Assembly: GCA_965220975.1 (NCBI GenBank)
Contig: OZ244855.1
Location: forward strand, 976,967-1,040,966
Reading direction: 5' to 3'
DNA: 64,000 nucleotides
Origin: Candidatus Poriferihabitans sp.
GTDB taxonomy: Bacteria; Pseudomonadota; Gammaproteobacteria; Arenicellales; Poriferihabitantaceae
Shown here: piece by piece, positions 4,793 to 51,104 of the stretch
How the letters are laid out: every line of letters begins with the position of its first letter
How positions within the stretch are numbered: position 1 is the stretch's first letter
Notes under the pieces: generated by a model
The model's input: the letters and a program-made list of their open reading frames with translations, nothing else
Databases searched by the model: none
What the model was told of the DNA's origin: nothing
Translations under genes and position numbers: made by a program

Positions 4793-5410
4793 ATGCTAAA
4801 TCCTTACGATGACCCCACCAACCCTGGGGATACATTGTTTCGAGATGTTCTCAGTCTCGCCCTGCTTGGATTTCTTGCGGTCATTGTATTGTTGCTTCCC
4901 CACTTGGTAGTTGAGCAAGATGACAAATCTGCTGTTCTAGAGGCCGATGGCGATCTGGTGGTTCAATTGACATGGCCGTCGGAAATGAACGCTGATATGG
5001 ATCTCTGGGTTCAAGCCCCCGGAGATATAGCCGTTGGTTATTCCAGCAAAGGCGGAAAAGTCTTCAATCTATTACGTGATGACCTCGGCAGCAAGTTTGA
5101 CTTATCCAGCGTTAACCATGAAAGTGCATACAGCAGGGGATTTGCCCGAGGCGAGTATGTGGTCAATGTCCACGCCTATCGAATTGACCCAAAATATCCG
5201 CCTCCCTTTACGGTTGAAGTTCTAGTCACTACAAAAATCACAAAAGATGATCAAGCCCAAGTCAAGCCAATCGTATTTACACGGACACTAATCACTCGAC
5301 AGGGTCAAGAAATAACAGCAGCCCGTTTTCGCCTGAAAGGAAATGGGGAGATGATCGAAAACAGCATGCATAGCTTGTTCAAACCGCTTCGTCAAACAGG
5401 CGTGAAGTAA
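4793..5410 (+). CDS. Single-pass membrane protein, ExbD/TolR-like N-terminal anchor plus extracytoplasmic beta-rich domain
   Basis: 205 aa. The N-terminus FRDVLSLALLGFLAVIVLLLPHLV has an Asp at the cytoplasmic edge of the TM, as in ExbD/TolR/MotB. It is followed by DLVVQLTWPSEMNADMDLWVQAPGD. Starts 27 nt after the MotA-like gene. Confidence 0.45.
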   Translation: MLNPYDDPTNPGDTLFRDVLSLALLGFLAVIVLLLPHLVVEQDDKSAVLEADGDLVVQLTWPSEMNADMDLWVQAPGDIAVGYSSKGGKVFNLLRDDLGSKFDLSSVNHESAYSRGFARGEYVVNVHAYRIDPKYPPPFTVEVLVTTKITKDDQAQVKPIVFTRTLITRQGQEITAARFRLKGNGEMIENSMHSLFKPLRQTGVK

Positions 5411-5415
5411 AACGA

Positions 5416-5928
5416 ATGGAAAACATTCCGATACTCTACCTGTTGCACATATGCTTGGCTGGACTACTCGTTGCCATTGCGATCTGGGCAAGGCGCTCAA
5501 TTGGACCTAGAGTTGCATCGATTGCATTACTGTTTGCATTCGTGTTGGTCGGATATGTTTCTCTGGTGAGTTTGTTGGGGCGACCTCAACCGATTGAGTA
5601 TGCATCTTTTGAAGATTCTGAAGAACATGCAACGGTCATTGCAGCAAGTATTGAAGAAGGCAACGCGATATATCTATGGCTTCGTGTTCCGGGAACCAGC
5701 CAACCCCGATACTATCGCATGGATTGGGATCATGAGGTTGCAACATCGCTGAAGCGAGCCATTGATCAGTCCTTGCGTAACAATACTTCAATCCAGTTGG
5801 AACTGGAATATGAGTCTTCTCTTGAAACTCGTCAAATGCCTCAGTTTTACAATTTGCCACAACCACGTCTCCCCGTGAAACCGCCACCAGAAGTATTCGA
5901 ATACCGAAACCCTGACAGCCCCATATGA
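5416..5928 (+). CDS. Two-TM membrane protein with soluble C-terminal domain, unknown function
   Basis: 170 aa, starting 6 nt after the previous stop. TM segments are ILYLLHICLAGLLVAIAIWA and VASIALLFAFVLVGYVSLVSLL. No motif recognised. Confidence 0.4.
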   Translation: MENIPILYLLHICLAGLLVAIAIWARRSIGPRVASIALLFAFVLVGYVSLVSLLGRPQPIEYASFEDSEEHATVIAASIEEGNAIYLWLRVPGTSQPRYYRMDWDHEVATSLKRAIDQSLRNNTSIQLELEYESSLETRQMPQFYNLPQPRLPVKPPPEVFEYRNPDSPI

Positions 5929-6007
5929 TTCTCCACAATCAAGGCATGAATGAAGAATGCTTTTGCTTGTCGGGCATTTTTCCATCTCTTGGTGACGGCA
6001 ATTACCT

Positions 6008-6910
6008 TTGAACGCTTTTCGCTCTAACATCACCGCAATGCCCGATTTGATACGGGGGATCTTGTGGATGATCTTTTCTGGATTCATATTTGTACTTGTT
6101 GGTGTACTGATCAAGTTGATGGAATCCGGATTACCGGCTATTCAAAGCGCATTTCTTCGCTATGTGTTCGGTTTGATCATTATTCTTCCCCTGTACCGAA
6201 GGTTTCACTGGAATAGCTTAACAAGACCGATTCTGGGTCTTTATTCGCTACGAGCCATGTTCCATGGATTCGCAGTGATGTTGTGGTTTTTTGCGATGGC
6301 AACCATTCCGCTGGCTGAGGTTACAGCGATTGCCTACAGCCTGCCGATTTATACTACAATCGGTGCGGCGCTGGTGTTCAAGGAGAAAATACGCATTCGA
6401 AGAGTCATGGCAGTAGTTATCGGATTTGCTGGAACATTAATTATTCTCCGTCCGGGTTTGGTGGAAATTTCATTAGGCTCACTGGCACAAGTTGCAGCTG
6501 CAATCGGTTTTGCTGGCTCGTTTCTGATTGCGAAAAAGCTGGTTTCTGCAGAAACTCCGACCAATATCCTGTTCATGTTGACGGCAGGATGCGGACTTGC
6601 ATTAATGCCTGCTGCACTAGCAGTTTGGGTTACTCCATCTTTGATCGATACAATCATTCTGGTTAGCATCGCGTCTCTGGCAACTCTTGGTCATCATGCA
6701 ATAACGAAAGCCCTGATTGCAGCCCCGCTTACGGCAACTCAGCCGTTTATATTTGTCCAGATGATCTGGGCAATTGGGTTTGGCTATATCCTGTTCAATG
6801 AAACGCCAGATGTATGGGTTGTTGTTGGCGCATTTATCATCATCGCCTCAACCACCTATCTCGCTCATCGAGAAATTGTAGCGCAGAAAAAATATGCACT
6901 TCATGAATGA
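6008..6910 (+). CDS. EamA/RhaT-type DMT-superfamily transporter (10 TM)
   Basis: 300 aa with two repeated five-TM halves, typical of EamA. The track start at 6008 is TTG; an alternative ATG lies at 6038. Confidence 0.65.
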   Translation: MNAFRSNITAMPDLIRGILWMIFSGFIFVLVGVLIKLMESGLPAIQSAFLRYVFGLIIILPLYRRFHWNSLTRPILGLYSLRAMFHGFAVMLWFFAMATIPLAEVTAIAYSLPIYTTIGAALVFKEKIRIRRVMAVVIGFAGTLIILRPGLVEISLGSLAQVAAAIGFAGSFLIAKKLVSAETPTNILFMLTAGCGLALMPAALAVWVTPSLIDTIILVSIASLATLGHHAITKALIAAPLTATQPFIFVQMIWAIGFGYILFNETPDVWVVVGAFIIIASTTYLAHREIVAQKKYALHE

Positions 6911-8071
6911 AGGGTGATCAATCGAAGTTAAATTTGCTGTTGGAGGGGTCCTTGAGAATGTATTTCTCATCGGTCTGGCGAGAATCGAAACCATCTTGTT
7001 CTGTTGCTGGAGGCTAACCGGATACCGATTGCTTTTCACCGCCTCGGAATCCAATTAATGTCCGAGCCTGACAGAGTGTCATTAGTTACCTTTACTGTTT
7101 ACATCATGGGTTGACCGATCAATGACAATATGACACTTGCAGTAATTTGCAGTGATCAAGCGCAGATATTTTCGAATTTCGAGTACTCAGACAGCATTGA
7201 ACAAAGTCTGCTTCAAATAACGATCACTTAAAGTAGTCTCTCTTATTTTTTTATGCTCTTCCTGCACTGAGACTGGATAAATTTTGAGTTGTTCATGACT
7301 CCCTCGCCAGGCAAGGATCATTTGATTGGTTGAAACAATGCTGGAAACCGACCGTTCGGACTTTGCCTGAGTCAAGCTGCCGATACCTGCTAATTTTCGC
7401 TGGAGAGGAAGCGAATATGGCGGACGATGATGCCGAATGTCGTGATTCGGATTTGCAATCAATGCACTGTCGGTAGCAAGTCTGCCCATCGCCGATCACC
7501 GGCAGTTAATTGTCTCCCTCAGACTCGCTCATCGCTTACGGCTAGTCTTAATCTCAATTCAAACTGCAAAAAGAACCATGCCTGATGTTGACCCTACGCG
7601 GATTCCGGGTGATACTCAACCAGTCCATCTTGAAAGACAACTCGGATTGTCACTTGGAGAAATCAAGCAATTGTCCATAATCAAGTTCATGCTATCTTTT
7701 ATCTGGCATGTACTTGCAAAACCGTTGAAAATTAATGATTTGGAAGTGGGTCCAAGGTTGCTTATTTATGGGTTTGGTCATGTATAAATTGTCGATGCAT
7801 CAATATTTCCTTCCCCGTTTCAAAAATATCAACGCGACACCAAACGTGGCCGGTGAAAAACTCTGATCTTTTACTCCAGATATACCTTGAACACCAGTAT
7901 TCGAAAAATACTTCACTTCAGTGGTATGGTAATATATAAACTTAAAAGTATCGAAATTGACGATGACTAGTTAGGTATGCATTCATTGCACGAATGACTG
8001 ATGATCAATGGAAAAACAGTAAATATGCCTATGAATTTTTCTGCTTCAATCTTGAAGATCGCTGTCAAAGC

Positions 8072-9046
8072 ATGATCGCAAAAATCGAATTTACACAGGA
8101 GCGTGTCGTAATTGCGGTCTCCGCAGCGTTATTCATTCTGTTTTCCCTCTCGCTGAGCGGTTTCTTTTCTGTCTCAAATCTGATCGGACTCATTCGCAAC
8201 ATTGCCATTTTGGGAATTCTTGGTGTTGGCATGGGTATCGTCATCATCGGACGCGGGATTGATTTGTCGATAGTGTCGATTTTGGCAATATCTGCTGCAT
8301 TCTTCATCGAAGTGTTACACGCCGGAATTCCATTGACGGGAAGTCTCTTTATCGCACTATGCTTCGTTCTGTTGATCGGCATTGTCAATGGAGTACTGAT
8401 TGCCTATGGGGAAATCCCGCCAATATTCGCAACACTGGCTATGGGGCTATTTGTTTATGGTTATGGACGCTCTCAGATTATGAGTGCCGATGTTGCTTAT
8501 GTGCCAGATGAATATGCTGATTTGCTCGACCTTGGAACAGTCAAGCCGCTAGGCATACCAATTGAGGTCTATATTTTTGCCGCAGTTTGCATCCTTGCCT
8601 GGTTCTTCTTGCGAAAAACCAAATATGGACAATACACATATTACATTGGCGACAATTACGAAGCAGCTCGAAATATTGGCATACCAGTTCGTCCGATGAT
8701 TGTATTGCAGTATGTCTTATCCGCGCTATTCGCCGCGATAGCGGGGGCCATTGTCGCAGGTACTATACTCAGCATTAATACCAGAATTGTGAATTCAACG
8801 CTACTTTACGATGTGATTCTGATTGTTGTCTTGGGCGGGATCGGATTGAGCGGCGGCAAAGGCGGTGTATCGAATGTTATTTTCGGGGCCTTGCTAATTG
8901 GCGTTCTGGTCAATGGCATGACGATCATGGATTTGGAACAGACTCATCAAAACCTGATTAAGGCGCTAATCTTGTTGATCGTTGTCATTCTTGATACTGT
9001 GTTTAACCAACGCAATGAGCAAACCGAAAAGCAGGGTGATATCTAG
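8072..9046 (+). CDS. Sugar ABC transporter permease (RbsC/AraH type)
   Basis: ORF 7994..9046; the likely start is MIAKIEF at 8072. Polytopic, with IGRGIDLSIVSILAISA and VVLGGIGLSGGKGGV motifs typical of ribose-family permeases. Confidence 0.75.
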   Translation: MIAKIEFTQERVVIAVSAALFILFSLSLSGFFSVSNLIGLIRNIAILGILGVGMGIVIIGRGIDLSIVSILAISAAFFIEVLHAGIPLTGSLFIALCFVLLIGIVNGVLIAYGEIPPIFATLAMGLFVYGYGRSQIMSADVAYVPDEYADLLDLGTVKPLGIPIEVYIFAAVCILAWFFLRKTKYGQYTYYIGDNYEAARNIGIPVRPMIVLQYVLSALFAAIAGAIVAGTILSINTRIVNSTLLYDVILIVVLGGIGLSGGKGGVSNVIFGALLIGVLVNGMTIMDLEQTHQNLIKALILLIVVILDTVFNQRNEQTEKQGDI

Positions 9047-10162: not shown

Positions 10163-10294
10163 TTAGATCCAGACCATGCGCATACCGCGACTTCCCGAAT
10201 AGGAGCGGTTGAATGGCACACATGGATTTATGCGAATCCGGTTCATAATTCGATTGCGTCCATCTGAATCACGCCTACAAAATCACGATTGATC

Positions 10295-12412
10295 ATGCGC
10301 TCAAAAATCAATCTGAGCAAGCTCCGTTACAACTATATTCCAGATCACATTCTGGGTGAAATCCTGACCAAACGGTGGGCAGATAACATCGTTCCAATTA
10401 CAGTGTTTGTGATTACTGTCGTGATATTAACAAACCTGATTCCGGGATTTCTGTCACCGCAAAGCTTGAGCGATGCTGGTCGGCAAATGGGGGAATTTCT
10501 GATTATCGTATGCGGCGTCTCTATCGTAATGATTGCCGGGGGTATTGACTTAAGCGTTGGTTCAATCTATGCGATTTGTGCATTAATTGCAGTAGCAGTA
10601 GTAAATCTTCTGGAATGGCCCGTTCCCGTAGCACTAATGATTTCCGTTCTAATCGGTGCCTTGTTTGGAGCAGTAAATGGATACTTAATCGGTTATCTAA
10701 AGCTTCGAGCCTTCCTGACTACCCTTATAACTTTCGTTATCGGGCGGGCCATCTACGACATTGCGCTGGATTATCTTGGAACTCCCATTCAGCTCTCATG
10801 GGTTGACTCTGCACTTTGGGATTTTATCGGCGATGGAACCGTCGGCCTGATTCCTGTCAGCTTTCTCTTTGCTGTAGTGGTGCTTGTGATTGCTCACATT
10901 TTTATCAGCCGCTCTCGACGAGGCTGGCATATCAGTGCAATTGGGGGTTCACGTCGTTCTGCATTCAATACCGGGATCGATGTAAAGAGAGTTGTTTGTT
11001 CAACCTACATCATTTCTGGCGCCTGTTGCGGCATTGCTGGCTTTCTGTTTGGAGCGCGGTTAAACGGAACGGGCCCCGGCACTGGAATCGGAATGGAAAT
11101 CCTGGTTCTTACTGCTTGTGTGGTTGGCGGCATCAGTCTGGGAGGAGGACGTGGCTCCATTGCGAAAGGCGTCCTTGGCGGCTTGATTGTTTTGACCATC
11201 AATAACAGTCTTATACGGATGGGCTATCACAGTGGTACCAATCAGATGGTTCTTGGAATTATGCTGACTCTCGCCGTGATTCTGGATATCCGCTGGCTTA
11301 GAAATCGCCATAAGGTTCTGGATAAGGTGTATGTTGCACCGGTTTATACATCCATGAATGAGCCCATCTCGGCTCTTCCCAAGGACCAGACAGCCTATGC
11401 GCTGAACTCTCGATTATCCGAAACGGAATTGATCGGAGCAGGTGAAGTTGAAGGACCAGAGGATGTTATTCTGGATAACGATGACCACCTGTATTGCGGG
11501 TCGAGACATGGTGATATTGTGCGGTTCTTCGCCCCGGATTACAAGGAATGGGAAGTCTTTGTTCATATTGGAGGATTTCCTCTCGGCCTTGCCTTTGATC
11601 AGCATCAAACCTTAATCATTTGTGTCGGTGCGATGGGGCTGTATTCGGTCACGCCGGACCGCAATATCGAAAGACTGAGCGCAGAAACCAATCGATCCTA
11701 TCTCTCGATCATTGATGATGCTCGATTACGAGACCCTAACGATCTGGACATCGGTTCGGATGGAAAAATTTACTTTACGGATTCAACCACTCGCTATGAT
11801 GCACATGAATGGGCGATTGACAGTGTCGAAAACCGCCCAACCGGCCGGGTATTGGTCTACGACCCGAAAACCAGGAAAACTCGAACTCTTCTGCGACGAC
11901 TGAATTATCCCAACGGGGTATGCATGGCTCATGATGGAGAATCATTTTTCTTTGCCGAATCTTGGGAGTGTCGGGTCAATCGATACTGGTATCGTGGCGC
12001 ACGAAAAGGCCAACTCGCAACAGTGATCCGAGATATGCCTGGATATCCAGACAATATTAATCGCGCATCTGACGGCTGCTATTGGATGGCTTGGCTTGGG
12101 ATGCGTACTCCCACTTATGACTTAATGCTAAAAATGCCCGGGACTCGGAGACGAATGACGCGTCAATTACCTCAGGATGACTGGCTATTTCCAAATATCA
12201 ATACTGGAGGAATCGTAAAGTTTGATGAACAAGGAAACATTCTTGAAGTTCTCGGTGATCTGGGGGGCAAGCATCATCCTATGGTTACCTCAATGCGCGA
12301 ACATAAAGGATATCTGTATGTTGGTGGCATCCTAAACAATCGAATCGGCAAATACAAACTGCATAAAGCGGATCAAAGCTGGACCAGTAATGAATCATAT
12401 TGGGGTAACTGA
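10295..12412 (+). CDS. Fusion protein: ribose-type ABC permease (N-terminal about 340 aa) plus strictosidine-synthase-like/SMP-30-like beta-propeller (C-terminal about 350 aa)
   Basis: 707-aa ORF. The permease part has AGGIDLSVGSIYA and VVGGISLGGGRGS. The C-terminal part has GKIYFTDSTTRYD, GRVLVYDPKTRKTRTLL, NYPNGVCMAHDG, MPGYPDNINRASDGCYWMAW. These are Str_synth-type motifs recalled from memory. Confidence 0.7.
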   Translation: MRSKINLSKLRYNYIPDHILGEILTKRWADNIVPITVFVITVVILTNLIPGFLSPQSLSDAGRQMGEFLIIVCGVSIVMIAGGIDLSVGSIYAICALIAVAVVNLLEWPVPVALMISVLIGALFGAVNGYLIGYLKLRAFLTTLITFVIGRAIYDIALDYLGTPIQLSWVDSALWDFIGDGTVGLIPVSFLFAVVVLVIAHIFISRSRRGWHISAIGGSRRSAFNTGIDVKRVVCSTYIISGACCGIAGFLFGARLNGTGPGTGIGMEILVLTACVVGGISLGGGRGSIAKGVLGGLIVLTINNSLIRMGYHSGTNQMVLGIMLTLAVILDIRWLRNRHKVLDKVYVAPVYTSMNEPISALPKDQTAYALNSRLSETELIGAGEVEGPEDVILDNDDHLYCGSRHGDIVRFFAPDYKEWEVFVHIGGFPLGLAFDQHQTLIICVGAMGLYSVTPDRNIERLSAETNRSYLSIIDDARLRDPNDLDIGSDGKIYFTDSTTRYDAHEWAIDSVENRPTGRVLVYDPKTRKTRTLLRRLNYPNGVCMAHDGESFFFAESWECRVNRYWYRGARKGQLATVIRDMPGYPDNINRASDGCYWMAWLGMRTPTYDLMLKMPGTRRRMTRQLPQDDWLFPNINTGGIVKFDEQGNILEVLGDLGGKHHPMVTSMREHKGYLYVGGILNNRIGKYKLHKADQSWTSNESYWGN

Positions 12413-12414
12413 GG

Positions 12415-13524
12415 TTGTTTGTAGACGAATTTGTTGATCGTTGTCTAGAACGAATCCGTACCAAGGCGATCGTCGTGCCTCCTCTGGATGGCGCGATGCG
12501 ACCAAATAATGCTTTGGATGAGTGTGATGTCATTTACAGCGAAATCGATCAACCTGATAACCTAATCGCTGTCAGTCAGGAACTGTGGTTTTCTTCATTG
12601 AATCGATTGTTCAAACTGAATCCGGAAACTGGTTTTGATGTTCAACTGATCACGGAGTTCGAGTCGAGTATTACATGTATAGCGCTTAGTACTGACCAAG
12701 GTATTGCAATCGCACTTGAAGATGGCAGACTGTTAACTGGAGAGATAAAAAATCAGGATCTTGCGAGCCTTGTGGAGCAGGAACACCTAAAATGCCCGAC
12801 GGCCATGACATTCACCCAAGATGGTCGATTGCTAATTTGCCAGGGCTCCAAAAATATCGACAGGCCGTCAGACATGACGCGAGATTTGCTGCAACATGGC
12901 CGATCTGGATCGATATGGACATACGATTTTGAAACAGGAAAGCGATCCTGCATCTTTCAGGATTTGTGTTATCCATTCGGTATCGTTGCGCTTTCAAACA
13001 GTGACGAGATTTTGGTTTCAGAGTGCTGGAAACATCGAATTCTCAAGTTTTCTTTGCAAAGCACTGATAAGCCAGAATCCGTTTTCAGTGATATTCCGGG
13101 CTATCCAGCCCGAATCATTGAACTTGCCAACTCCGAGTTGATGTTATGTCTTTTTGCGCCGCGAAATCGACTGATTGAATTTGTATTGCGCGAGCATGAA
13201 TTTTGCAGGCAAATGGTTGACACTATCGACCCCGAATACTGGATTGCACCGACTCTAAGGAGCACTCATCGTTTTTTGGCGCCGTTACAGAAAGGAGGTG
13301 TCAAAGTCATGAGCATTCACAAACCATGGGCTCCAACCTTATCGTATGGAATGATGGTTCGGCTGGATCAAAGCCAGTCTCCTGTCGAAAGTTATCATAG
13401 TCGCGCAAATGGCCATCGTCATGGGATAACCAGTTGCTGTCAAATCGGGAATCGAATATTTGCAACCTCCAAGGGTAATGACTGCATCGTGGAGTTGACT
13501 GTTCGCTCTGTAGAATTATCATGA
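12415..13524 (+). CDS. Second strictosidine-synthase/SMP-30-like beta-propeller protein
   Basis: 369 aa (TTG start in the track; the true start is uncertain). Motifs are DGRLLICQGS, ILVSECWKHRILKFSL, IPGYPARIIEL. Its stop overlaps the ATPase start. Confidence 0.5.
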   Translation: MFVDEFVDRCLERIRTKAIVVPPLDGAMRPNNALDECDVIYSEIDQPDNLIAVSQELWFSSLNRLFKLNPETGFDVQLITEFESSITCIALSTDQGIAIALEDGRLLTGEIKNQDLASLVEQEHLKCPTAMTFTQDGRLLICQGSKNIDRPSDMTRDLLQHGRSGSIWTYDFETGKRSCIFQDLCYPFGIVALSNSDEILVSECWKHRILKFSLQSTDKPESVFSDIPGYPARIIELANSELMLCLFAPRNRLIEFVLREHEFCRQMVDTIDPEYWIAPTLRSTHRFLAPLQKGGVKVMSIHKPWAPTLSYGMMVRLDQSQSPVESYHSRANGHRHGITSCCQIGNRIFATSKGNDCIVELTVRSVELS

Positions 13525-15187: not shown

Positions 15188-15256
15188 ATAGTTAATCCGG
15201 CTACGCCGCTTTTTTCAACCCCCTTCCGCCCCACGCACTACTTTCGACCATAACTC
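15188..15256 (+). repeat. Solo copy of an IS256-family terminal sequence (about 69 bp)
   Basis: ATAGTTAATCCGGCTACGCCGCTTTTTTCAACCCCCTTCCGCCCCACGCACTACTTTCGACCATAACTC. About 90% identical by eye and in the same orientation as 50733..50810, the outer end of the mini-IS256 element. Confidence 0.8.
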
Positions 15257-15374: not shown

Positions 15375-18266
15375 TTATTTGCGCAGCAAAGACGCCCATT
15401 CTTTTAAAGTCTGTTTGTTGTCGAGAAGTTCATTTTCCAAGAACTTTTGTATTTTCGCTGTGAGTTCTTCTAATCTCCCAAACTGATTGGAAAAATAGAA
15501 TGCATCGGTTATTTCAACAAAGTCATGATTGAATAAGGATTCGGGCTCCAGCAAATCGTATATCCTTACCCATTTCTGTTCAACTTTGACGCTTAACTCA
15601 GGATTAAGCACATAATAACCCCTAGTTAATCTTTTGAAGATTCGACGGTTGTTGCTGGTGTCCCGGTTCATTTCGTTTCGAGCAAGAACTGATGAGATGT
15701 ACCGACGCTGTTTGCGAAAATTTGGCACGATTGAATCAGGAAAGCTTTCGAGTACATTTTCTAGTTGAGCTGCCGTGATTCCAAGCTTGTTTCTATGCAC
15801 ATTTAATTCCTGCTGCGTATCGATATTAAATATTGCCATGAACAGATTGAAAAACAAAAACTCGGCTTTGTGACTATCCAATTTCGTCAGTCGACCACCG
15901 ACCATGACCGACACGTCCTTTGGACAAATTTTTGCACAAATTCTTGTTGTTGTCTTTTCTGCATATGTTTTATCAATTCGAGCTTGCTGCAGCATGATCT
16001 GATAGGCAGTCAGGCCGGCGCAATTGACCAGGTCAAGTTTTGCATTCATTTGCGTGAGCATCTGCACGCCATTCTCACTTCCAAAGCGTGTAGCAAGCAT
16101 AAGTGGGGTAAAGTTAAATCGATCCCGATGATCTACTCCATATTGCCCAACTAGTCTCTCAATACCTCTTGCATTTTTAAATGAATAGGCCCCATAGTGG
16201 TTATCGATGAGTTTCTTGATTCCGATATCAAAATTATTTCTTGCAGGTTTGAAATGGTTAAATTTCAGCAAGTTTAAACGTGCATAATCACAACTTAGAA
16301 GGGCATACTCGTAAAGATAAAGCATGCTCTTTCGATCTGCATCGTGAGTATAAATTCGATTGCTAATTTCATTTAGCACCACTCTGTCCACAGGGTTCCA
16401 AGGAACGGGCTGTACTCCAAGAATCCGCTTACGGATATCTTCCGCTTGTGTTGCTTTGCCTTGCCGTTCCAGTTTTTGCGCTTCCTGATTCCATTCAGCA
16501 AGACTCGATTTCTGGTTTTCAATTTGAAATTCCCCGGAAAACAGTTGAATGTCCATCAAGTTATAGATTGGTTGATTGGGTTTTGGCTCAACCAGATAGA
16601 TCGTACGTATCGCTCGGGTAACCGCAACATACAAGGCATTTATATGAAATTTGTAAATCTCGAGGGACTTGTCTGTTTTATCTTTTGCCCGTGCATATTT
16701 CAATTCTCCAGAACGAACCTGCTCTGGATCGACATCTTTTGCTATTTCCCGAAATCTTTTCTCATCCTCCGAAACAAATCCGTAGAGAACAATATTTTCA
16801 TACTCCAGGCCTTTTATCTCCTGGACTGAAAAGATCAAAGGTGTTCGAAATTTCTCCTGGGCAATTTTCTTATCTTCTGGATTGAGAACAATCACTGCAT
16901 GTCGAGTCGATCCATGCGTTTTGCCATCGAGTTCATTGGTCACTTCAGGCACATCAGACAGTAATATCACGTTACCATCATCGAGAGAATTGCTCGTGAC
17001 CAGATGATTGCTCTCCCTGTCTACAGAGCCAAAACGCGCATGCTTCAAACGCAAAATTCGATTTGCCATTTCAGTGACTTGTCTTGAATTCCGGTAGTTT
17101 GTGCTAAGTATTCGGATTAAATCTGCAGGACTTTCAAAATCAGTGCTGGTGGTTTGACTGGTTTTTTCGTACAGGTGAGATTTAAGTCCAGACCAGGAAA
17201 AGAAATTTGGGTGAACGATCTGGTTCGAATCTCCGCTCAAGACAAATTCACGAGCGTTTTTCAGACCACGAAAAATGAGCTCCAGCTGAACATTTGTGAA
17301 GTCCTGGACCTCATCAATAATAATGAAGTCCCATTCCGGTTTGACTAGTGCCTGATACTCGTAACTGATTATATTAATATCATGAAAACCCGAATCTTGA
17401 AGAAACTGCAGATATTTCTGAAACAGATCGTAAACTCGATCACGCACTTCCACTGGATATATCGACTGACGAACTCCAAGGCTTACATAGCCTTCGCGGC
17501 TTAAATAAGCGGCACTTCCAGTACCTGTAATCACGCCATTGAATTCTTCGTACAATTGGTAAGCATCCTTGAATCCTGCTGCTCTGGAATGTCTTGCAAA
17601 CCAAGATTCGAAATCTGTGAATCCGACTTCTCGTGTTTGAGGCACCCGGATCGATTCAAGAAATTCAGCATAGGACAGAAAACTGGCTTCCTGATCCTCG
17701 TTTTCATAATTTAGCCCGTAATATGATTCGCTGGATTTGTCAACGAGATAAGGTGAACGTGTAACATACAGAACATCGCCTTCGGCTTGCTTAAGTTTCT
17801 CAAGTGTCAGTACGGTTTTACCGCTACCTGCAGAACCAATAATTATGAAAGGAGGCTTTAAGTTGTAGGTCTCATGTTGATTGTCATCGAAAAAAATAAT
17901 CTTATCGAGAACATTGAATGTATTATGTGCTTCATTCACATAAACAAGCTTCTCTGACTCTTTCGATGAATCCGCATCCGCTATGGGTAATGCCGTTTCG
18001 TCAATTTGAACACCGCGCGCAAGGAAGCGTGACTTCTCATAATTATGATTGGGAATAAATTCCAAGATCAGGATATATGACTGCTGATTGTGGCGAGCGA
18101 ACGAAAATAAAAGTCGATTAGTTCTATCGAGTCGTGCGCGAAACAAGTTTTTTCCAACCTTGCGTACATCCGCAGACTGATAATCTCCAGCTTCAAGCTG
18201 GGCCTTAATCTTTGTGAAATTTGGAATTTTCTGTGCGTCTAGGTTTTGATAAAGTAGTGTTTTCAA
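15375..18266 (-). CDS. SF1 (UvrD/Rep-like) helicase with RelE/ParE-like N-terminal domain and C-terminal ankyrin-repeat region
   Basis: 963 aa, TTG start. Walker A is IIIGSAGSGKT and motif II is FIIIDEVQDF. Further helicase motifs are STNYRNS and LYVAVTRAIRTIYLV. The N-terminus reads VRKVGKNLFRARLDRTNRLLFSFARHNQQSYILILEFIPNHNYEKS. The ANK-like stretch is FNFTPLMLATRFGSENGVQMLTQMNAKLDLVNCAGLTAYQIM. Confidence 0.75.
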   Translation of the reverse strand: MKTLLYQNLDAQKIPNFTKIKAQLEAGDYQSADVRKVGKNLFRARLDRTNRLLFSFARHNQQSYILILEFIPNHNYEKSRFLARGVQIDETALPIADADSSKESEKLVYVNEAHNTFNVLDKIIFFDDNQHETYNLKPPFIIIGSAGSGKTVLTLEKLKQAEGDVLYVTRSPYLVDKSSESYYGLNYENEDQEASFLSYAEFLESIRVPQTREVGFTDFESWFARHSRAAGFKDAYQLYEEFNGVITGTGSAAYLSREGYVSLGVRQSIYPVEVRDRVYDLFQKYLQFLQDSGFHDINIISYEYQALVKPEWDFIIIDEVQDFTNVQLELIFRGLKNAREFVLSGDSNQIVHPNFFSWSGLKSHLYEKTSQTTSTDFESPADLIRILSTNYRNSRQVTEMANRILRLKHARFGSVDRESNHLVTSNSLDDGNVILLSDVPEVTNELDGKTHGSTRHAVIVLNPEDKKIAQEKFRTPLIFSVQEIKGLEYENIVLYGFVSEDEKRFREIAKDVDPEQVRSGELKYARAKDKTDKSLEIYKFHINALYVAVTRAIRTIYLVEPKPNQPIYNLMDIQLFSGEFQIENQKSSLAEWNQEAQKLERQGKATQAEDIRKRILGVQPVPWNPVDRVVLNEISNRIYTHDADRKSMLYLYEYALLSCDYARLNLLKFNHFKPARNNFDIGIKKLIDNHYGAYSFKNARGIERLVGQYGVDHRDRFNFTPLMLATRFGSENGVQMLTQMNAKLDLVNCAGLTAYQIMLQQARIDKTYAEKTTTRICAKICPKDVSVMVGGRLTKLDSHKAEFLFFNLFMAIFNIDTQQELNVHRNKLGITAAQLENVLESFPDSIVPNFRKQRRYISSVLARNEMNRDTSNNRRIFKRLTRGYYVLNPELSVKVEQKWVRIYDLLEPESLFNHDFVEITDAFYFSNQFGRLEELTAKIQKFLENELLDNKQTLKEWASLLRK

Positions 18267-18744
18267 GGCAACAATCTGCAGTTCTTATAATAGGGTTGAT
18301 TGAGTTACTTGCATGGTAATTTCATCCAGGGCAAGATCATTCGCGATCAATTTCGCCAGTTGCTTTTGTCGTCATGGACGACAATATTCGGGATCAGTTT
18401 CTTCAGGTTTATTCTATCGACTTGATGCATGAATTGTCCAGATTCCAGCCAACACATGTTATCGAGGTGAGTTGAAGCCGCAGTCAATAGAAACATTGAT
18501 AAATCATTTTAATCTCATATGTATACTGATGATATCGAGAGTGTTAGTGAACAGATACTCATGTCAATTGTTTCGATTCATTTTATTGTATCAAATGCAG
18601 AATCTCCCTGATCACTCACGAATTCGAGTAACAGGAAAAAGAATGAGGCGTGATCAGTTCGTTGATTTCATCGTCTCCTGATCCTCTAATTTTATGTGTT
18701 GCTCAAATAAATTTCCAAGATGGTGGGATTGGTAAACTATGTGG

Positions 18745-20090: not shown

Positions 20091-21362
20091 ATGACAATAA
20101 ACCGAAATCAAGATCGCATTGATAAAAAGGATGTGATTATTATTGGTGGCGGAATTATTGGTACCGCAACCGCCTGGAATCTGGCAAAAAGAAACAAGCG
20201 GGTCAAGTTGTTCGAAAAGGGCAGTGTAGCTGGTGAGCAATCTGGCCGGAATTGGGGCTCGATACGTTCGCAAAGACGATCAGCTACAGAGTTTCCAATC
20301 ATGCTGGAAGGAATTCGGATTTGGGAAACTCTCGAGAAAGAACTGAATGCAGATCTTGATTAGCGCCAAGAGGGTCATATTCGGCTTTGTTACGATGAAA
20401 AACTGCTAGAGTGGGCTGAGGATTGGGTGCCAATTGGTCGGGAAAATGGTCTTGATACCCGTGTTCTTACACCTGGAGAATGCGAGAAACTATTGCCACA
20501 CTATTCAGCCAAAGGTTTGCTAGGTGCTCTGTATACGCCAACAGACGGGTGTGCCGAACCGATAAAGGTAACAGCTGCGCTGGCACGTTCTGCCTCCCGT
20601 TGTTCTGCCGAAATTATTGAAAATTGTGCAGTACTGCAAATTTTAACGGAGAATGGTCGAGCATCTGGAGTCCTGTCAGAAGAGGGTGAAACTCATGCTG
20701 ACGCGGTCATCGTAACCAGTGGCGCATGGACTAGTCGTCTCCTTAAACCTCTCGGTATTGATCATCCTTCCTTGTGGGTCAGAGCTTCAGCTGCACATAC
20801 CGAAGCCCTGACCATCAATCTGAGAAAGCTGGTTAGTTGGGGTCGTTGCGCATTTCGCCAGAGATCCGACCAGTCCTTGACGCTTGCTGTTGCAGAACAT
20901 GGATGTCACGACCTGATGCTTGATTCTTTTCGTTATGATGCTGCATATCTCAAATTGGTAGTACAGAATCATGACTTGTTTCGTTTTTCACTAGGTCAGC
21001 CTATGCTGGATGACCTTAACGGTCGATTTGATGACTTTGCAAGCACAGAAAATAGAACTCTTGATCCTGCTCCCGATCATGCAGCACTTGAGCGAGCCGC
21101 CAAGTTTTTTGCTGCCGAATATCCAGCTGCACAGCCATTGAAACTAACTCGATCTTGGGCGGGATGGATCGATTATATGCCAGATGCACTACCAGTTCTT
21201 GGTGAGACTCCAAATATATCGGGGCTTTTCGTTGGAGCTGGATTCAGTGGAGGAGGCTTTGGAATGGGGCCAGTCAGCGGAAAGATTCTGTCCGATCTTG
21301 TTTGTGATGGATATACGCCGCATCCTGTGCAGCCACTGTGCCCTTCCAGATTTCAGCGGTAA
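20091..21362 (+). pseudogene. FAD-dependent oxidoreductase (DAO family) interrupted by one in-frame TAG
   Basis: ORFs 20091..20363 and 20427..21362 are in the same frame. The N-terminus has VIIIGGGIIGTATAWNLA (GxGxxG). The TAG at 20361..20363 sits in ...ADLD*RQEGHIRL, where family members usually have W/F. TGG to TAG is one transition. Confidence 0.65.
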
Positions 21363-22249: not shown

Positions 22250-24159
22250 GTAACTACTCGTCCACTTGATTGCACTTGAGGGGAAAACATCAAGCGAGAG
22301 CTGGTTTACCGCAGGACCCGCCAGTAACCGATCATGTGGCTTGAGGTTGCAAGTCCGAGTTCTCCACGATCCCGCCCAGCTCGAGCAGATAGGTCCGGAA
22401 AGACGGGATCGGGCACACAAACTGATTCCTTGATTCTCGGTGCAAGGCCCCCTGGTGCACGAGGTGAACGAAGAAGGCGTCTGCATCCATGCCTGCCGGC
22501 AAGCGATATTTCCGAGGATCCGCCTCATGAAGGTCTTCCATCAAGCGCCTGATCCGGGAAGAGCCCTGATTGCTGTCCATCGCAGCCATCACTTCGGCCG
22601 TCAGCTCCATGGCATCTTTCATCTCGCTTGAAAACTGACCGTCGCAATACCCGTCCCTTCCGGTCTTGATCTCGGCCTGTATCCTCTCCCATGCCGCCCT
22701 GCCGAGATCGCCCTCCGTTTTCAGGGCTTCTGCGCCCAGTGCCTGCAAGACGACATGCAGATGCCGGGGCCACCCGTCACAAGGCTGAAGCAGCCGATCG
22801 ACCTCATCATCATGTCCGGCAGCATCAATGCCAAAATGCGCACAGGACCTTTCCATGAGTTCCTGAACTTCATGATCCGGGAAACGCCCGATGTTGTGTT
22901 TCTGCCTGTGCGGCATGCGGGTCAGTCCCATCTTGCGGGCCGAGTATTCGGTATCGCTGAGACCCGCCAGCACCAGCGCAATCGGCAGCCCGCAACCGTC
23001 ATGGAGACTCTGAAACAGCTTGGAGAGAGGATCTTCGGAATCACGTTGAAAGCGCTGTGCCTCGTCGATGGCCAGCACGATCGGACGGTCAAACCCGCCA
23101 TGCTGTTCAGCCCAGTCCCCCAACACATCCCAGTGCATGCGCGGTCTTGCTGGCTCCATGGTGGTCTCTTGCTTGCCGAAGGCCTTGACTGGACCCAAGC
23201 CAATCCCAGCCTCTCCGCCGGATGTCCGAACGGAATGCGATAAAAACTCCTCGGCAGCTGTCGGGTTGATGCTCCGGGCTAGCGGTTGAAGAATGTCAAC
23301 GGGCTCCTCGATTACGCCAGACTCCAGCACTACCACCAGCGGGAGCTTGCCGACACTCTCCGTATACAGTCTCTCCGGATTGTGCCTGATCTGGTGCACG
23401 ATCGAGCTCTTGCCCGCCCCCGGCGCGCCCTGGATAATGCGCGTCGTTTTCCCTGCGCCATGCTGATCGGCTCCCGAGCCCTTCCACACCTGTCTGGCCG
23501 CTTGCGCAATGTCGTCGAGCACTTCGGCCCGTCCAACAAACACCAGAGGAGGCTTCCCTTCCGTTCGCTTGAGAAAGGACTCCAGTTCTTTTTTCTGATC
23601 AGGATTCATCGCTACACCTCGCCACGGGCATGATCATTGAATGCATGCAGACATGGTATACAGAATAAAACGGATCACCGAAGACTACTCAAGTACACAG
23701 GCAAATAAATCTAAATCATTGCCTGAAAGCGGCATCCCGTTCGCTGTACCCGAAATTTGACGATGGACTGAACGATCTGACAGACACCACGAAACTTTCA
23801 CATGTGCCCGGGACCGGAAAACGATCTCCTTGAGCTCCTGTGCCCACTCTCCCGTACTGATTGCATGGATATTCGAGGCCTGCAAGAGAAAACGGCATGG
23901 CGAAATACATGCCTGCAGTCTATCACACCATGCTGCTGGGAATGGAACGCTCACTCGCTTTCACCCTGTCATGACAACCCGAACCAATCGATCAAACTGT
24001 CTTCATTTCGGACCGATCGAGCTCAACGAGCTTTCCACTCACGCGAGACTTCACTGCAGATGGATTGGCCAGACTGCTGGTTCGGGAACTGAAGTCTGAA
24101 ACTTCAGCAGAGTACGGTTCCAAAATATCTGCTCGTCACCAATAGGGGCGAGTAGATAC
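22250..24159 (-). mobile_element. Non-autonomous IS66-family-like cassette (mobile insertion cassette) carrying one AAA+ ATPase gene
   Basis: The ends are GTAACTACTCGTCCAC (22250 onward) and GTATCTACTCGCCCCT (reverse complement of the 24159 end), matching at 11 of the first 14 positions. Both start GTA(A/T). A perfect 8-bp direct repeat flanks the element. The interior is visibly GC-rich compared with the flanks. No transposase ORF is present. Confidence 0.75.
22332..23609 (-). CDS. ORC/Cdc6-like (AAA_16/AAA_22-type) ATPase, cargo of the cassette
   Basis: 425 aa. LVFVGRAEVLDDI precedes the P-loop, Walker A is IQGAPGAGKSS, and Walker B is IVLAIDEAQRF. The C-terminal half is helical. GAGGTG lies 6 nt upstream of the ATG. 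Confidence 0.7.
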   Translation of the reverse strand: MNPDQKKELESFLKRTEGKPPLVFVGRAEVLDDIAQAARQVWKGSGADQHGAGKTTRIIQGAPGAGKSSIVHQIRHNPERLYTESVGKLPLVVVLESGVIEEPVDILQPLARSINPTAAEEFLSHSVRTSGGEAGIGLGPVKAFGKQETTMEPARPRMHWDVLGDWAEQHGGFDRPIVLAIDEAQRFQRDSEDPLSKLFQSLHDGCGLPIALVLAGLSDTEYSARKMGLTRMPHRQKHNIGRFPDHEVQELMERSCAHFGIDAAGHDDEVDRLLQPCDGWPRHLHVVLQALGAEALKTEGDLGRAAWERIQAEIKTGRDGYCDGQFSSEMKDAMELTAEVMAAMDSNQGSSRIRRLMEDLHEADPRKYRLPAGMDADAFFVHLVHQGALHRESRNQFVCPIPSFRTYLLELGGIVENSDLQPQAT

Positions 24160-48473: not shown

Positions 48474-48539
48474 TCTTGGCGCAAGAAGCTCCTGTGCTGA
48501 AAGAGGCTAATGCCCTCGGTCGCAAACTTGATCAAGCTA

Positions 48540-48969
48540 GGGTGTATTAACGCTAATCAGTGCATCGACGATGAGCGCGAAGACGATGAATCCGAGGAAC
48601 ATGATGTCGAGTTTCTCGAAGCGCGAGAACACACGTCGGAAGCCCTTGAGCCGCCGGAACAGGCACTCGAACTCGCGGTCCAGAACGCCGTTCTTCGACC
48701 ACCGGTTCATGCACGTGTAGATGGTGTGCCCGTTTCCGAAGTGCTCCGGCAGACCGCGCCACTTGCAGCCGTGCTCGGCCACGTAGAGAATGGCATTGAG
48801 GACCTGCAGGTTCGAGAGGCTGACATTGCCCCACTGCCTCAGCAACAGTGGCACAATGCGCTCATACTGTATCCGGATGAGTTCCACTTGCCTGTTCCTC
48901 CGCATTGCTTCAACTGAAAACAAGGGTGGCAAGTCTACCACATCCATGGCAAACTATGTTAACACGCCC
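48540..48969 (-). mobile_element. 430-bp internally deleted IS5-family (IS427-like) element
   Basis: Inverted ends are GGGTGTATTAAC (48540 onward) and GGGCGTGTTAAC (reverse complement of the 48969 end). They are flanked by TA (48538..48539) and TA (48970..48971) within C-TA-G. The 136-aa ORF 48537..48947(-) fuses the N-terminal HTH part (LNAILYVAEHGCKWRGLPEHFGNGHTIYTCMNRWSKNGV) to the C-terminal tail (RRLKGFRRVFSRFEKL). The DDE core is missing. GC-rich. Confidence 0.75.
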
Positions 48970-49017
48970 TAGATTGGACGGCCTGTTTCCCACGAAGATT
49001 CATGCGATTACAGAGAT

Positions 49018-49745
49018 TGAACCAGGAGTCCGCCATCAACGGATATCACGGCACCATTGATGAAGTTGCGGCATCGCTGACCAGCATTTAAATAACGGAA
49101 TATCTAGTTTCATGCATCTGTCCGACCCGGCCAGCAGATGTTTTTTCAATATATGCAGTCCCGGTACCAGAATCCAGATACTCTGGTTCATGTCTGTCTC
49201 GAAATAGCCAGGAAAGAGCGCATTGAAACGAACCCTCTTGGGTCAAGCTCCAGTGCCATAATTCTGGCAAGTTGAATAACTCCATCTTTTGAGACCGAAT
49301 AGGCTGACTGCCCAAGGCTCGGTTGCATCCCAAGGATAGAAGCAATATTCAGGATACATCCGGATCTATGGTTTTTCAGCATGAATCGGGAAACCACTCG
49401 TGAAAGTCGAAACATTCCATGTAAGTTGTTCTCCATGATTCCAGACCGGCTTGCTCCTCGATTCACGTAAAACGAGCTGAATGAACAATTCCTGCATTAT
49501 TGACCAGAATATCGATCGGCCCCAAGGCGTTGATCACCGATTTAACAGCATTGCAAATAGAGGTGCTACTTTAGACATCAAGCTCGACTGATAACGTCCT
49601 GTTTGACAGGCCAGAGGCAACATGGTTGAGCTTCATGAGACTCCAGCCCACAATTGCGCCCGTTGCCCAGGCTTGATCTAGTACATGCGCGAAATGAGCA
49701 CCTAATCCGCCTGATGTGCCGGTAACCAAGGCTACTCAACAGCAA
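49018..49745 (-). pseudogene. Decayed SDR gene
   Basis: The minus strand reads LVTGTSGGLG..., then LDV*, ...IDILVNNAGI..., FT*, ...NIASILG...YSVSKDG..., and a C-terminal INGAVISVDGGLLVQSL*. Several stops and frame changes are present. Confidence 0.7.
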
Positions 49746-49811
49746 ATCAAGCTGGTCATGGAAGCAGGAAGATCGGAATTCACGGACAAACCAGTAAGCA
49801 GGTGTTCAATA

Positions 49812-50103
49812 TGGCGTCCCCGAGAGGATTCGAACCTCTGACCTGTCGCTTCATACCCGCCACAGTTTTCACTGCCAGTTAATGACTGTTTGGAGTCTGG
49901 ACTATCTCTTGACCATGAGCATGACTGCCCGTAGGCCCCACCCGTTTAGTCTCTATACCTTCCGTTGTCGGCTTGGCTAGGGATTGCCATCGGCTTAAAC
50001 CGTTAAGGTTTCCCCTAATTTGAGTGGATTCATCCAGGGAGTTTCCAGCCCCGATGCCCAATATTTAGGAGGCGACCGTTCTATCCTGCTGAACTACGGG
50101 GAC
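49812..50103 (-). tRNA. tRNA-Arg(CCU) interrupted by a group I intron (exons 50103..50067 and 49851..49812; CCA encoded)
   Basis: The spliced sequence is GTCCCCG-TA-GTTC-AGCAGGATA-GAAC-G-GTCGC-CTCCTAA-GCGAC-AGGTC-AGAGG-TTCGAAT-CCTCT-CGGGGAC-G-CCA. It folds as a canonical 77-nt cloverleaf with anticodon CCT. Confidence 0.85.
49852..50066 (-). ncRNA. Group I intron (IC3-like), 215 nt, no ORF
   Basis: Inserted after U36 of the anticodon loop and ending in G (...GGGUAUG|AAGCGAC). The core strings are UCAAAUUAGGGGAAACC, AUGGCAAUCCCUAGCCAAGC and GAAGGUAUAGAGACUAAACGG. They closely parallel the bacterial tRNA-intron (Azoarcus-type) core as I remember it. Confidence 0.8.
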
Positions 50104-50256
50104 GCATAATCACTATTTTAACAGAATCTAGATTGGGCGGGTCAGGCGCTACTTGATAACGGCAGAGTCGGGTTATTTATTTAACTTATTGTATTATAAT
50201 AATTTTATTATAAGTAAATTTAGGTTTAGAAATAACTGAAATCCGCATCACATATG

Positions 50257-50810
50257 GAGTTATGGCTGAAAGTAGTGCGCGGGGCGGAAAGGGGTTCATC
50301 CAGCGGCTACCGTGTTCTGATCTGATTGTACCTCGATTCCGTCCTGGAACTGCACTTCCTCGATGACCTGTCCCAGCCTGCGGAACCCGCGCAGCCTTCG
50401 CCAGCGGGATTCCGCGCACTGGCCGAGCTTGAACATCATGTCGAGCATGGTGTCGCGGCTCAGGCAGCCCCGGGTCGTCCGGGTCCGGTGGCGGGTCGTG
50501 GCGAAGGTCGACTCGATCGAGTTGGTGGTGCGAATGCTCTGCCAGCGCTCGGCCGGAAAGTCGAAGAAGTTCATCCGTTTCTCGCGATCCTCGATCAGCT
50601 TCACCGCCGCGCCAGCAACTGCTGGGCGCCGTCGCACAGAATCCCGGTCAGGGCGTCCTCAAATTTTCCGATTTGCGAATAGTCAATAATGTTATCATCT
50701 CTCATGGTGGCGTACCTCCTGGTCAGCTTTTTAGTTAATGGAATAGTTAATCCGGCTACGCCGTCTTTTCAACCCCCTCCCACCCCGCGTACTACTCTCG
50801 ACCATAACTC
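50257..50810 (-). mobile_element. 554-bp internally deleted IS256-family element
   Basis: Terminal inverted repeats are GAGTTATGGCTGAAAGTAGTGCGCGGGGCGGAAAGGGGTT (50257 onward) and GAGTTATGGTCGAGAGTAGTACGCGGGGTGGGAGGGGGTT (reverse complement of the 50810 end). The transposase remnant has the N-terminus MRDDNIIDYSQIGKFEDALTGILCDGAQQLL. It is joined out of frame to the C-terminus FFDFPAERWQSIRTTNSIESTFATTRHRTRTTRGCLS. Confidence 0.85.
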
Positions 50811-51104
50811 ATCTCAGAAGCCCATATTGTATAAATATGTCTCGGCGGCGAGATAATAAATTGAAGTGAGAATCAAAAATTCAAAGGGTGAAGAAAATTC
50901 TGGAGTTGCAAGAGTTGCTCATTATCTCAATGAGAGAGACACTCGGGTTGTGTGCAGGTCGCCCGACGTTGGGCGGCAGGAGAACTACCGAAATTGTCCG
51001 ATTTCAAAATTGAAGCAAAAGTTCTCCATTTTCGAGAATACGGTCTATAATCTGCCTCAGCCAACTGAAAATGTAAAGGAATCAAGTAGAGGGGATTCGG
51101 ATTG

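Follow-up and report, generated by a model that had tools for sequence, protein, structure and literature searches.

A stand-alone, accessory SF1A helicase with a probable RelE/YoeB-like N-terminal fold and C-terminal ankyrin repeats

The helicase gene considered here occupies positions 15375..18266 on the minus strand of a 64,000-nucleotide stretch (hereafter "the window") of contig OZ244855.1 from Candidatus Poriferihabitans sp., a gammaproteobacterium. The open reading frame (ORF) listing gives a stand-alone 963-aa protein with a TTG start, which is supported by homologues across many phyla beginning at the same position (M-x-V/I-L-L-Y...), and public assemblies contain a 100%-identical protein, encoded on contigs of chromosome size. 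An initial annotation of the window had proposed both this ORF and its start, and every motif it quoted was located in the protein and mapped to coordinates (its N-terminal string corresponds to residues 34-79). The flanking genes are likewise those it named, with an MR_MLE (enolase-superfamily) gene upstream on the same strand across a 478-bp gap and an ABC (ATP-binding cassette) ATPase gene converging on the 3' end, a layout that makes the suggested monocistronic organization plausible. The best promoter-like site from a consensus scan of this gap (TGGACA-18-TAGAAT, 10/12 matches, 18411..18440, minus strand) is weak evidence only, as such sites are no more numerous there than in shuffles. 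The reported AT-richness relative to the neighbours is genuine yet modest: the G+C content of the gene, 0.412, is the lowest of the 44 large ORFs of the window (mean 0.468, sd 0.034), or ~1.6 sd below the window mean.

This gene sits at a synteny break. It is absent beside all 80 enolase-family orthologues (65-76% identity) found on metagenomic contigs of the window's own lineage, and the closest syntenic contig (L165) is collinear with the window through ACAD, APH, GST and the enolase-family gene, then breaks exactly at the helicase start.

Broadly speaking, the protein consists of an N-terminal domain and linker, a helicase motor and a repeat-containing C-terminal region. The motor, of the superfamily 1A (SF1A; UvrD/PcrA/Rep-type) kind by Pfam, PDB profile and motifs, spans residues 119-565 (16572..17912, minus strand). 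It bears a full SF1 motif set, all on the minus strand: Walker A (GSAGSGKT, residues 144-151, 17814-17837), motif II (IIIDEVQDF, residues 315-323, 17298-17324), motif III (GDSNQ, 17211-17237), motif IV in its UvrD-type NYR(S/N) form (TNYRNS, residues 389-394, 17085-17102), motif V (16785-16832) and motif VI (VAVTRAIRTIYLV, residues 547-559, 16590-16628). UvrD-helicase was above its Pfam cut-off (32.1 bits, cut-off 23), and AAA_19 and Viral_helicase1 also passed, with partial coverage only. A profile of the motor family matched PcrA best in the PDB (E=2.6e-8), followed by UvrD, Rep, AddA, UvrD1, FBH1 and HelD (E=0.0019), in alignments that span motifs II-IV only. The protein remained far below the cut-off of every NCBIfam equivalog. 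The motor thus shares Walker A, DEVQD, GDSNQ, NYRNS, motif V and VAVTRA with UvrD, PcrA and Rep, but is very distant from them (only motifs II-IV align, E ~1e-8) and carries a short insertion between motifs IV and V, while UvrD has no counterpart of the N- and C-terminal modules. From its sequence we read it as an intact but divergent SF1A helicase, in line with the complete UvrD/Rep-type motor of the initial annotation. As no helicase motif varies among 114 aligned sequences from many phyla, it is predicted to be almost certainly active.

The N-terminal domain (residues 1-88; 18003..18266, minus strand) is a small alpha/beta unit that likely has a RelE/YoeB-like fold, as judged by modelling with AlphaFold2, Foldseek comparison and hidden Markov model (HMM) tests. 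It is followed by an acidic linker (residues 89-118; 17913..18002, minus strand) which is the least conserved part of the protein and varies in length, and across which the predicted local distance difference test score (pLDDT) drops after residue 90. The AlphaFold2 model of the domain, built with 44 homologues, reached a pLDDT of 85 and a predicted template modelling score (pTM) of 0.77, with the topology b1-a1-b2-b3-b4-b5. Its N-terminal strand, helical layer and antiparallel sheet of 3-4 strands are the arrangement characteristic of the RelE/ParE superfamily. The top Foldseek matches in the PDB were YoeB/ParE 6n90, Sa2YoeB, HigB, HP0892 and HigB2, and structural matches over the full domain include 6n90, 7v5y, 9chl, 2otr and 5ja9; the support for a toxin fold is borderline in numerical terms (E 5e-3, template modelling score ~0.5). 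Structure prediction thus agrees with the initial annotation, in that the best full-length structural matches are toxins of the RelE/ParE superfamily.

Sequence comparison yielded a weaker and more selective signal. Against curated Pfam toxin profiles (ParE_toxin, YoeB_toxin, HigB and others), a single one of the 44 members touched ParE_like, at E=0.2; a PDB profile search with the domain returned no toxin match, and hhalign against toxins gave probabilities of at most 5%. Proof of RelE/ParE homology by sequence profile was therefore not obtained, the signal being confined to ranking and shuffling, and by sequence the domain falls outside the curated RelE/ParE families. For the ranking, we built a combined HMM from 163 N-terminal domains (ankyrin and Firmicutes types together) and searched it against 3,857 small proteins, a set made up of every ORF of 60-140 aa in the fetched loci and four classic toxin sequences. 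A frameshifted fragment of the family itself came first, Escherichia coli RelE was the best non-self match, and three YoeB homologues, which are all those present in the loci, ranked third to fifth, so that RelE and YoeB together lay within the top five non-self matches, with individually weak scores (6-7.5 bits). We then counted how many of 2,000 composition-matched shuffles of each toxin reached the real score: 9/2,000 for RelE, 3/2,000 and 10/2,000 for YoeB homologues from the loci, 27/2,000 for E. coli YoeB, 101/2,000 for HigB and 1,194/2,000 for ParE. This corresponds to an empirical p of ~0.002-0.005 for RelE and YoeB and to no signal for ParE. The proposal of a RelE/ParE-like N-terminus thus stands at the level of the fold and of a weak sequence signal, but not in Pfam or PDB sequence searches, and it is the RelE/YoeB branch rather than ParE that is indicated.

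In mRNA interferases of this group, catalytic or RNA-binding residues include K52, K54, R61, R81 and Y87 of RelE, and E46, R65, H83 and Y84 of YoeB. The hmmsearch and hhalign registers agree in placing R43/R45/R51 of the domain on RelE K52/K54/R61, and R51 on YoeB R65. Within the 114-sequence alignment, K36, R43, R51, E69, H74, Y76 and S79 are at least 97% conserved, on par with the helicase motifs; H74 and Y76 lie just past the last strand, 1-3 residues from the positions of YoeB H83/Y84 and RelE R81/Y87 (by inspection only), and Y76 is lost in Firmicutes relatives. The initial annotation had cast this domain as a sensor, which found no support: the pattern of conservation, with basic residues, a His and a Tyr, is more suggestive of an effector or a nucleic-acid site. 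Compared with free RelE, YoeB and HigB toxins, it is similar in size, in the order of strands and helices and in the core motif hYrxRhxxxxRhhF, after which come a hydrophobic strand and an end with His and Tyr. Unlike these 85-95-aa toxins, it is fused to a helicase and ~870 further residues, has no antitoxin gene, has its helical layer cut to one predicted helix, and lies below every Pfam and PDB sequence threshold, with the ParE signal absent.

The C-terminal region was modelled from residue 578 to 963 with similar confidence (pLDDT 85, pTM 0.80), as a helical hairpin, a stack of helix pairs to residue ~780, a module at 781-905 and a poorly predicted tail. Profile searches, AlphaFold2 and Foldseek identify residues 586-780 (15927..16511, minus strand) as the hairpin and an ankyrin-type stack, with one canonical repeat at residues 717-756 (15999-16118, minus strand) and degenerate repeats on either side. 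On its own, the window protein scores under the Pfam cut-off (Ank_2, 18.5 bits vs. 27.3); the family profile matches PDB ankyrin and DARPin chains with E down to 7.5e-24, homologues exceed the Pfam ankyrin cut-offs (e.g., P0235, with Ank_2 at 37.1 bits and Ank at 25.7 bits), and the top Foldseek matches of the model are DARPins and natural ankyrin proteins only. Ankyrin repeats are thus present at the family level, by profile, by homologues and by the modelled helical stack, as the initial annotation had suggested for the C-terminal third.

Beyond the stack, a conserved alpha/beta module (residues 781-905; 15552..15926, minus strand) was delimited by conservation and by the AlphaFold2 model, which confidently predicts a beta-hairpin, helices and a 4-strand meander. 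Its near-invariant residues are Y856, E865, F877, R879, G883, Y885, N888, P889 and W899, including an RGxYxLNP motif which by eye resembles a winged-helix-type wing. No relative of this module was detected among PDB sequences or in Pfam, and the Foldseek results for the C-terminal model are dominated by ankyrins. The helical tail (residues 906-963; 15378..15551, minus strand) is variable, poorly conserved, gapped and of low pLDDT. Unusually long homologues showed no extra domains.

Overall, relatives of this protein form a large and widespread family. A word-indexed search returned 4,521 related clusters at 90% identity, and each of the best 120 spans the full length (880-1,130 aa; 49-62% identity). 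Identity within the family is 41-62%, over at least ten phyla. An exhaustive profile search with the N-terminal domain gave 608 clusters (50% identity level). In the top 150 of these 608, each of the 35 full-length proteins aligns collinearly with the query and no stand-alone N-terminal domain was found, the short matches being contig-end fragments or frameshifted copies, so that the domain is seen here only in the helicase architecture. A one-genome-per-species set (~186,000 genomes) contained at least 323 matches at 41-58% full-length identity. Proteobacterial hosts include Gammaproteobacteria (Chromatiales, Methylococcales, Endozoicomonas, Thiothrix), Nitrosomonas and Zetaproteobacteria, and other hosts belong to Desulfobacterota, Bacteroidota, Verrucomicrobiota/Lentisphaerota, Planctomycetota, Nitrospirota, Chloroflexota and Deinococcus. 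Such a patchy distribution suggests horizontal transfer. No relative was found in the phage and viral collections INPHARED and IMG/VR. Public records name these proteins "hypothetical protein", "AAA family ATPase", "UvrD-helicase domain-containing protein" or "ankyrin repeat protein"; no PADLOC or NCBIfam entry covers the family, and full-text literature searches returned an analogue (see below) but nothing on the helicase family.

More distant relatives (23-24% identity from the N-terminal domain through the motor) occur on plasmids of Bacillus cereus and Paraclostridium. Their N-terminal domain resembles the textbook RelE/ParE layout (...IPKGFWIxKIxGTxIYKFRVNSGDRILF...HDxQI). In Paraclostridium (L087, 5869-9018), tetratricopeptide repeats (TPR) replace the ankyrin repeats within a fused 1,049-aa protein, and B. 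cereus pJ2_2 (L088) encodes a 190-aa TPR/SEC-C protein (5370-5942) 2 bp upstream of an 804-aa helicase (5944-8358). This Firmicutes-type branch comprises ~55 clusters, part TPR-fused and part ankyrin-fused. As these relatives exchange ankyrin for TPR, either fused or split, we consider the wider superfamily, on sequence grounds, to be an N-terminal domain plus SF1A motor with a swappable repeat module. Swapping of repeat modules is usual for sensor modules.

To look for partners, all ORFs within 7 kb of the gene were clustered across 81 loci. The largest neighbour cluster covers 5/81 loci, which leaves no candidate for a conserved partner gene, and no cognate antitoxin gene is conserved in the 81 loci (in the window, the flanks are the ABC ATPase and enolase-family genes). 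The 130 nearest neighbours in 73 loci represent 150 Pfam families, mostly metabolic or housekeeping, with a few restriction-modification (RM) or PIN genes, and most copies of the species set are chromosomal, beside ordinary metabolic genes and without a visible mobile element. Nor do the homologues occupy a core-genome, syntenic housekeeping context, a finding that would have told against the initial annotation: the copies are patchy, accessory and mobile. The only recurrent neighbour is an SNF2/DUF3670 helicase (4-6/130), which in five unrelated genomes (L011, L049, L052, L066, L071) is a ~900-aa protein encoded directly downstream on the same strand, followed in three of the five by the gene for a 358-aa protein that looks SWIM zinc-finger-like by inspection. 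This SNF2/DUF3670 helicase may act as a functional partner on occasion, or it may be a module that travels along with the family gene.

Evidence of mobility comes from plasmids and genomic islands. The family gene is carried by 142 plasmids, including 103 from Shigella and 13 from E. coli (the pINV virulence plasmid) as well as others from Piscirickettsia, Deinococcus, Methylosinus, Polymorphobacter and more. On pWR501 of S. flexneri M90T, the copy (WP_010921718.1; L082, 8938-11850) is intact and lies beside shf-capU-virK-lpxM, surrounded by insertion sequence (IS) elements and the toxin-antitoxin modules vapBC, ccdAB and yacA; ospG and ipaH9.8 are also among the pINV neighbours, with virK and lpxM(msbB2). 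The RefSeq start of WP_010921718.1 is placed 21 codons upstream of the family-consensus start. The closest relatives of the pINV copy are E. coli chromosomal island copies (83-90% identity). In E. coli, 115/5,426 complete genomes (2.1%) carry the gene, in 106 chromosomal and 10 plasmid places, always within CP4-type integrative islands whose genes include AlpA, "inovirus Gp2 family" proteins, a YeeP-like GTPase, antirestriction proteins, CbtA/CbeA, Rpn and IS66. Two of the three island copies inspected (L084-L086) are pseudogenes. An AlpA plus 177-aa module precedes the helicase in E. coli and was found in 2,589 genomes; the 177-aa gene belongs to the island backbone and was ruled out as a partner.

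This island slot is a hotspot of variable cargo, holding dndBCDE and a DGQHR-domain protein (L171, 8953-14874; a DNA phosphorothioation defence system) in O157:H7 86-24, a contact-dependent inhibition (CDI) system in CRE78 and EC14, and IS1 with sul2/aph genes in NC22. Since CRE78 and EC14 retain the genes that flank the helicase in EC28 but lack the helicase itself, the gene behaves as a discrete single-gene indel. The cargo of the slot is mixed, with CDI and antimicrobial resistance genes besides the Dnd system of O157:H7, rather than made of defence genes alone.

Several known systems resemble parts of this protein. Its best PADLOC match is GajB of Gabija (E=1.7e-11, residues 277-406), likewise an SF1A motor outside DNA repair, but the match covers only part of the motor and GajB has no RelE-fold or ankyrin module; with partial GajB matches only, and no GajA (OLD nuclease) partner in the window or related loci, identity with Gabija was rejected. 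Nhi, Hna, type II Mokosh and RecB/AddA also join a translocating motor and a nuclease-type domain in one polypeptide, and the Nhi and recB models match the motor weakly. In these, the nuclease folds (PD-(D/E)xK, PLD and others) and positions differ and ankyrin repeats are lacking, and none of their profiles covers the window protein over its full length. A published analogue comes from restriction and defence loci, in which HEPN RNase toxins have been fused independently to SF-I/UvrD helicases, in some cases with recognition modules at the C-terminus; these fusions are proposed to couple detection of an invader to suicide or defence acting on RNA (Anantharaman et al., 2013; PMC3710099). The window protein shares with them the design of one polypeptide with an N-terminal toxin-type domain (here a putative RNase), an SF1 helicase and C-terminal recognition modules, but differs in its RelE/YoeB-like fold, in recognition by ankyrin/TPR plus the C-terminal module, and in lacking the Vsr/restriction endonuclease-type DNase or transglutaminase. 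The combination of modules is undescribed, and the protein matches no catalogued system.

Architecture and distribution are firmly established, if somewhat unexpected: an intact SF1A motor and ankyrin repeats, in a stand-alone gene with an accessory and mobile distribution. From these we infer function. Tentatively, and as a possibility rather than a probability, we favour a stand-alone, horizontally mobile conflict or defence enzyme, with an RNase-like effector of RelE/YoeB type under the control of, or fed by, the motor and repeat sensor. The motor would load on nucleic acid and translocate along the strand, and the ankyrin stack and conserved C-terminal module would bind a conserved protein or nucleic-acid ligand, thereby setting when and where the motor engages. 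The N-terminal domain, held on its flexible acidic linker next to motor domain 1A, would be the output. One option is an effector of RNase type, cleaving RNA or whichever strand the motor delivers, much as in RecB/AddA; the other is a toxin directed at translation that a trigger would release, halting growth of the infected or invaded cell in the manner of abortive infection. Such an enzyme would work along the lines of nuclease-helicase immunity proteins and of the HEPN-RNase/SF1-helicase fusions, with the RelE/YoeB fold as the nuclease-like part.

Several observations weigh against this favoured reading. The nearest neighbours show no clear defence-island signal, conservation along the full length exceeds what is usual for an arms-race sensor, and the best matches in PADLOC-DB v2.0.0 cover at most 130 motor residues or the ankyrin repeat alone, so that the comparison proposed in the initial annotation found no model of a catalogued anti-phage system to cover the protein. 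That annotation's defence or conflict reading is thus upheld as regards an accessory and mobile gene, but the function itself is inferred, the neighbours are mostly housekeeping genes and no PADLOC model applies.

A more specific version of the same idea, which we regard as rather unlikely, is a "toxin-motor-sensor" in which the helicase and an exchangeable ankyrin or TPR sensor would gate an mRNA interferase of RelE/YoeB type, as a translation-shutoff immune or addiction module without an antitoxin. Its own C-terminal module or tail could possibly inhibit it in cis.

The protein might instead serve its carrier plasmid or island through post-segregational killing, competition between elements or establishment, with the helicase acting on the DNA of the carrier itself or of a rival. 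Carriage on plasmids and integrative islands is what this would predict, and the pINV copy among vapBC, ccdAB, yacA and IS elements, the antirestriction, CbtA/CbeA and CDI genes near the island copies, the toxin-like N-terminal domain and a strong conservation, as expected for a fixed molecular target, are all consistent with it. However, most copies in the species set are chromosomal, lying by metabolic genes without a visible mobile element; no antitoxin-like partner was found, and E. coli island copies are often pseudogenised, which an addiction module should resist. We therefore consider such a selfish function improbable, though not remote.

Similarly doubtful is an accessory nucleic-acid or RNA-surveillance helicase with no role in conflict, whose N-terminal domain would be non-catalytic and dock on the ribosome, RNA or a DNA end. 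By analogy with HelD, an RNA-polymerase-associated helicase that the motor profile does detect (E=0.0019), the ankyrin and C-terminal modules would tether the motor to a conserved host machine. The very high full-length conservation across phyla, repeats included, suggests a conserved host ligand, and mostly housekeeping neighbours and the lack of a defence-database match also fit. Against this stand the patchy occurrence of the gene (2.1% of E. coli, 0/80 orthologous loci, at least 323 of ~186,000 species genomes), its carriage on plasmids and islands, its clean presence/absence polymorphism and the swapping of its repeat module in relatives, which are not marks of a housekeeping factor.

Finally, many bacterial ankyrin-repeat proteins are secreted, eukaryote-directed effectors, and although the repeats, the copy on the Shigella/enteroinvasive E. 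coli (EIEC) virulence plasmid by virK, lpxM(msbB2), ospG and ipaH9.8 (which would then reflect a role in Shigella virulence) and the Piscirickettsia plasmid copies could be read in this way, the phyletic spread of the family makes it very unlikely. Most members belong to free-living sulfur oxidisers, methanotrophs and nitrifiers, to Bacteroidota, Deinococcus and the like. In addition, the SF1A motor is intact and of bacterial type, the pINV copy is closest to copies in E. coli chromosomal islands (83-90% identity), and no secretion-related neighbour is conserved.

Should the protein prove to be a mobile conflict or defence enzyme, it would represent an undescribed deployment of the RelE/YoeB-type toxin fold, built into a helicase with an exchangeable repeat sensor and without a separate antitoxin, and would add a new single-gene entry to the catalogue of defence and conflict systems. 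It would also give a function to a ~970-aa pINV ORF now called only "UvrD-helicase domain-containing protein" or "hypothetical protein". Even with a role outside defence, a helicase with the fold of a ribosome-directed toxin would link nucleic-acid motors and translation. The family is directly testable in standard hosts, as copies exist in Shigella/EIEC pINV and in islands of ~2% of E. coli.

Turning to the other features of the window, a solo terminal repeat of an IS256/Mutator-type element (15188..15255) ends 119 bp past the helicase stop codon, where the initial annotation had placed a solo IS256 end. It matches 50743-50810 over 68 bp at ~88% identity, with sharp divergence on both sides, and this second copy adjoins an internally deleted Mutator/IS256-type transposase remnant (50296-50715, minus strand). 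The remnant scores 20.9 bits against Transposase_mut (cut-off 21, E=1.9e-4), borderline because it is a fragment. The shared terminal repeat and the transposase remnant beside its second copy thus confirm the assignment. The whole region 48500-50810 is an IS graveyard, which also contains an IS4/IS5-type DUF4096 transposase fragment (48537-48947, minus strand) and fragments of a short-chain dehydrogenase-like ORF. Directly after the IS remnant comes the gene for another TTG-start protein, of 968 aa (51102-54008, plus strand), which was considered as a possible paralogue of the helicase and rejected, since it carries an Eco57I-type N6-adenine methyltransferase domain. Its PADLOC matches to mad2, type II methyltransferases and PglX are weak; the protein may be a restriction-modification enzyme of type IIG or BREX-like kind, and its gene is a second accessory gene of the window.

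Closer to the helicase, at a distance of ~4 kb, a gene for a 425-aa AAA_16/AAA_22 ATPase (22332-23609, minus strand) stands out by its G+C content of 0.588 and its G+C at third codon positions of 0.671, vs. a window mean G+C of 0.468. It is absent from the syntenic relative L165, has no PADLOC match and looks like a recent foreign single-gene insertion. The gene for a DAO (FAD-dependent oxidoreductase) protein is broken into two ORFs (20091-20363 and 20427-21362, plus strand) and is apparently a frameshifted pseudogene; L165 has no DAO gene between its GST and enolase-family genes. No Rfam family and no tRNA was found anywhere in the window. On the other side of the helicase, a 707-aa protein (10289-12412, plus strand) fuses an ABC permease (BPD_transp_2) to an SGL/strictosidine-synthase-like beta-propeller, an unusual transporter-enzyme fusion which is followed by a second, stand-alone SGL/Str_synth protein at 12415-13524.

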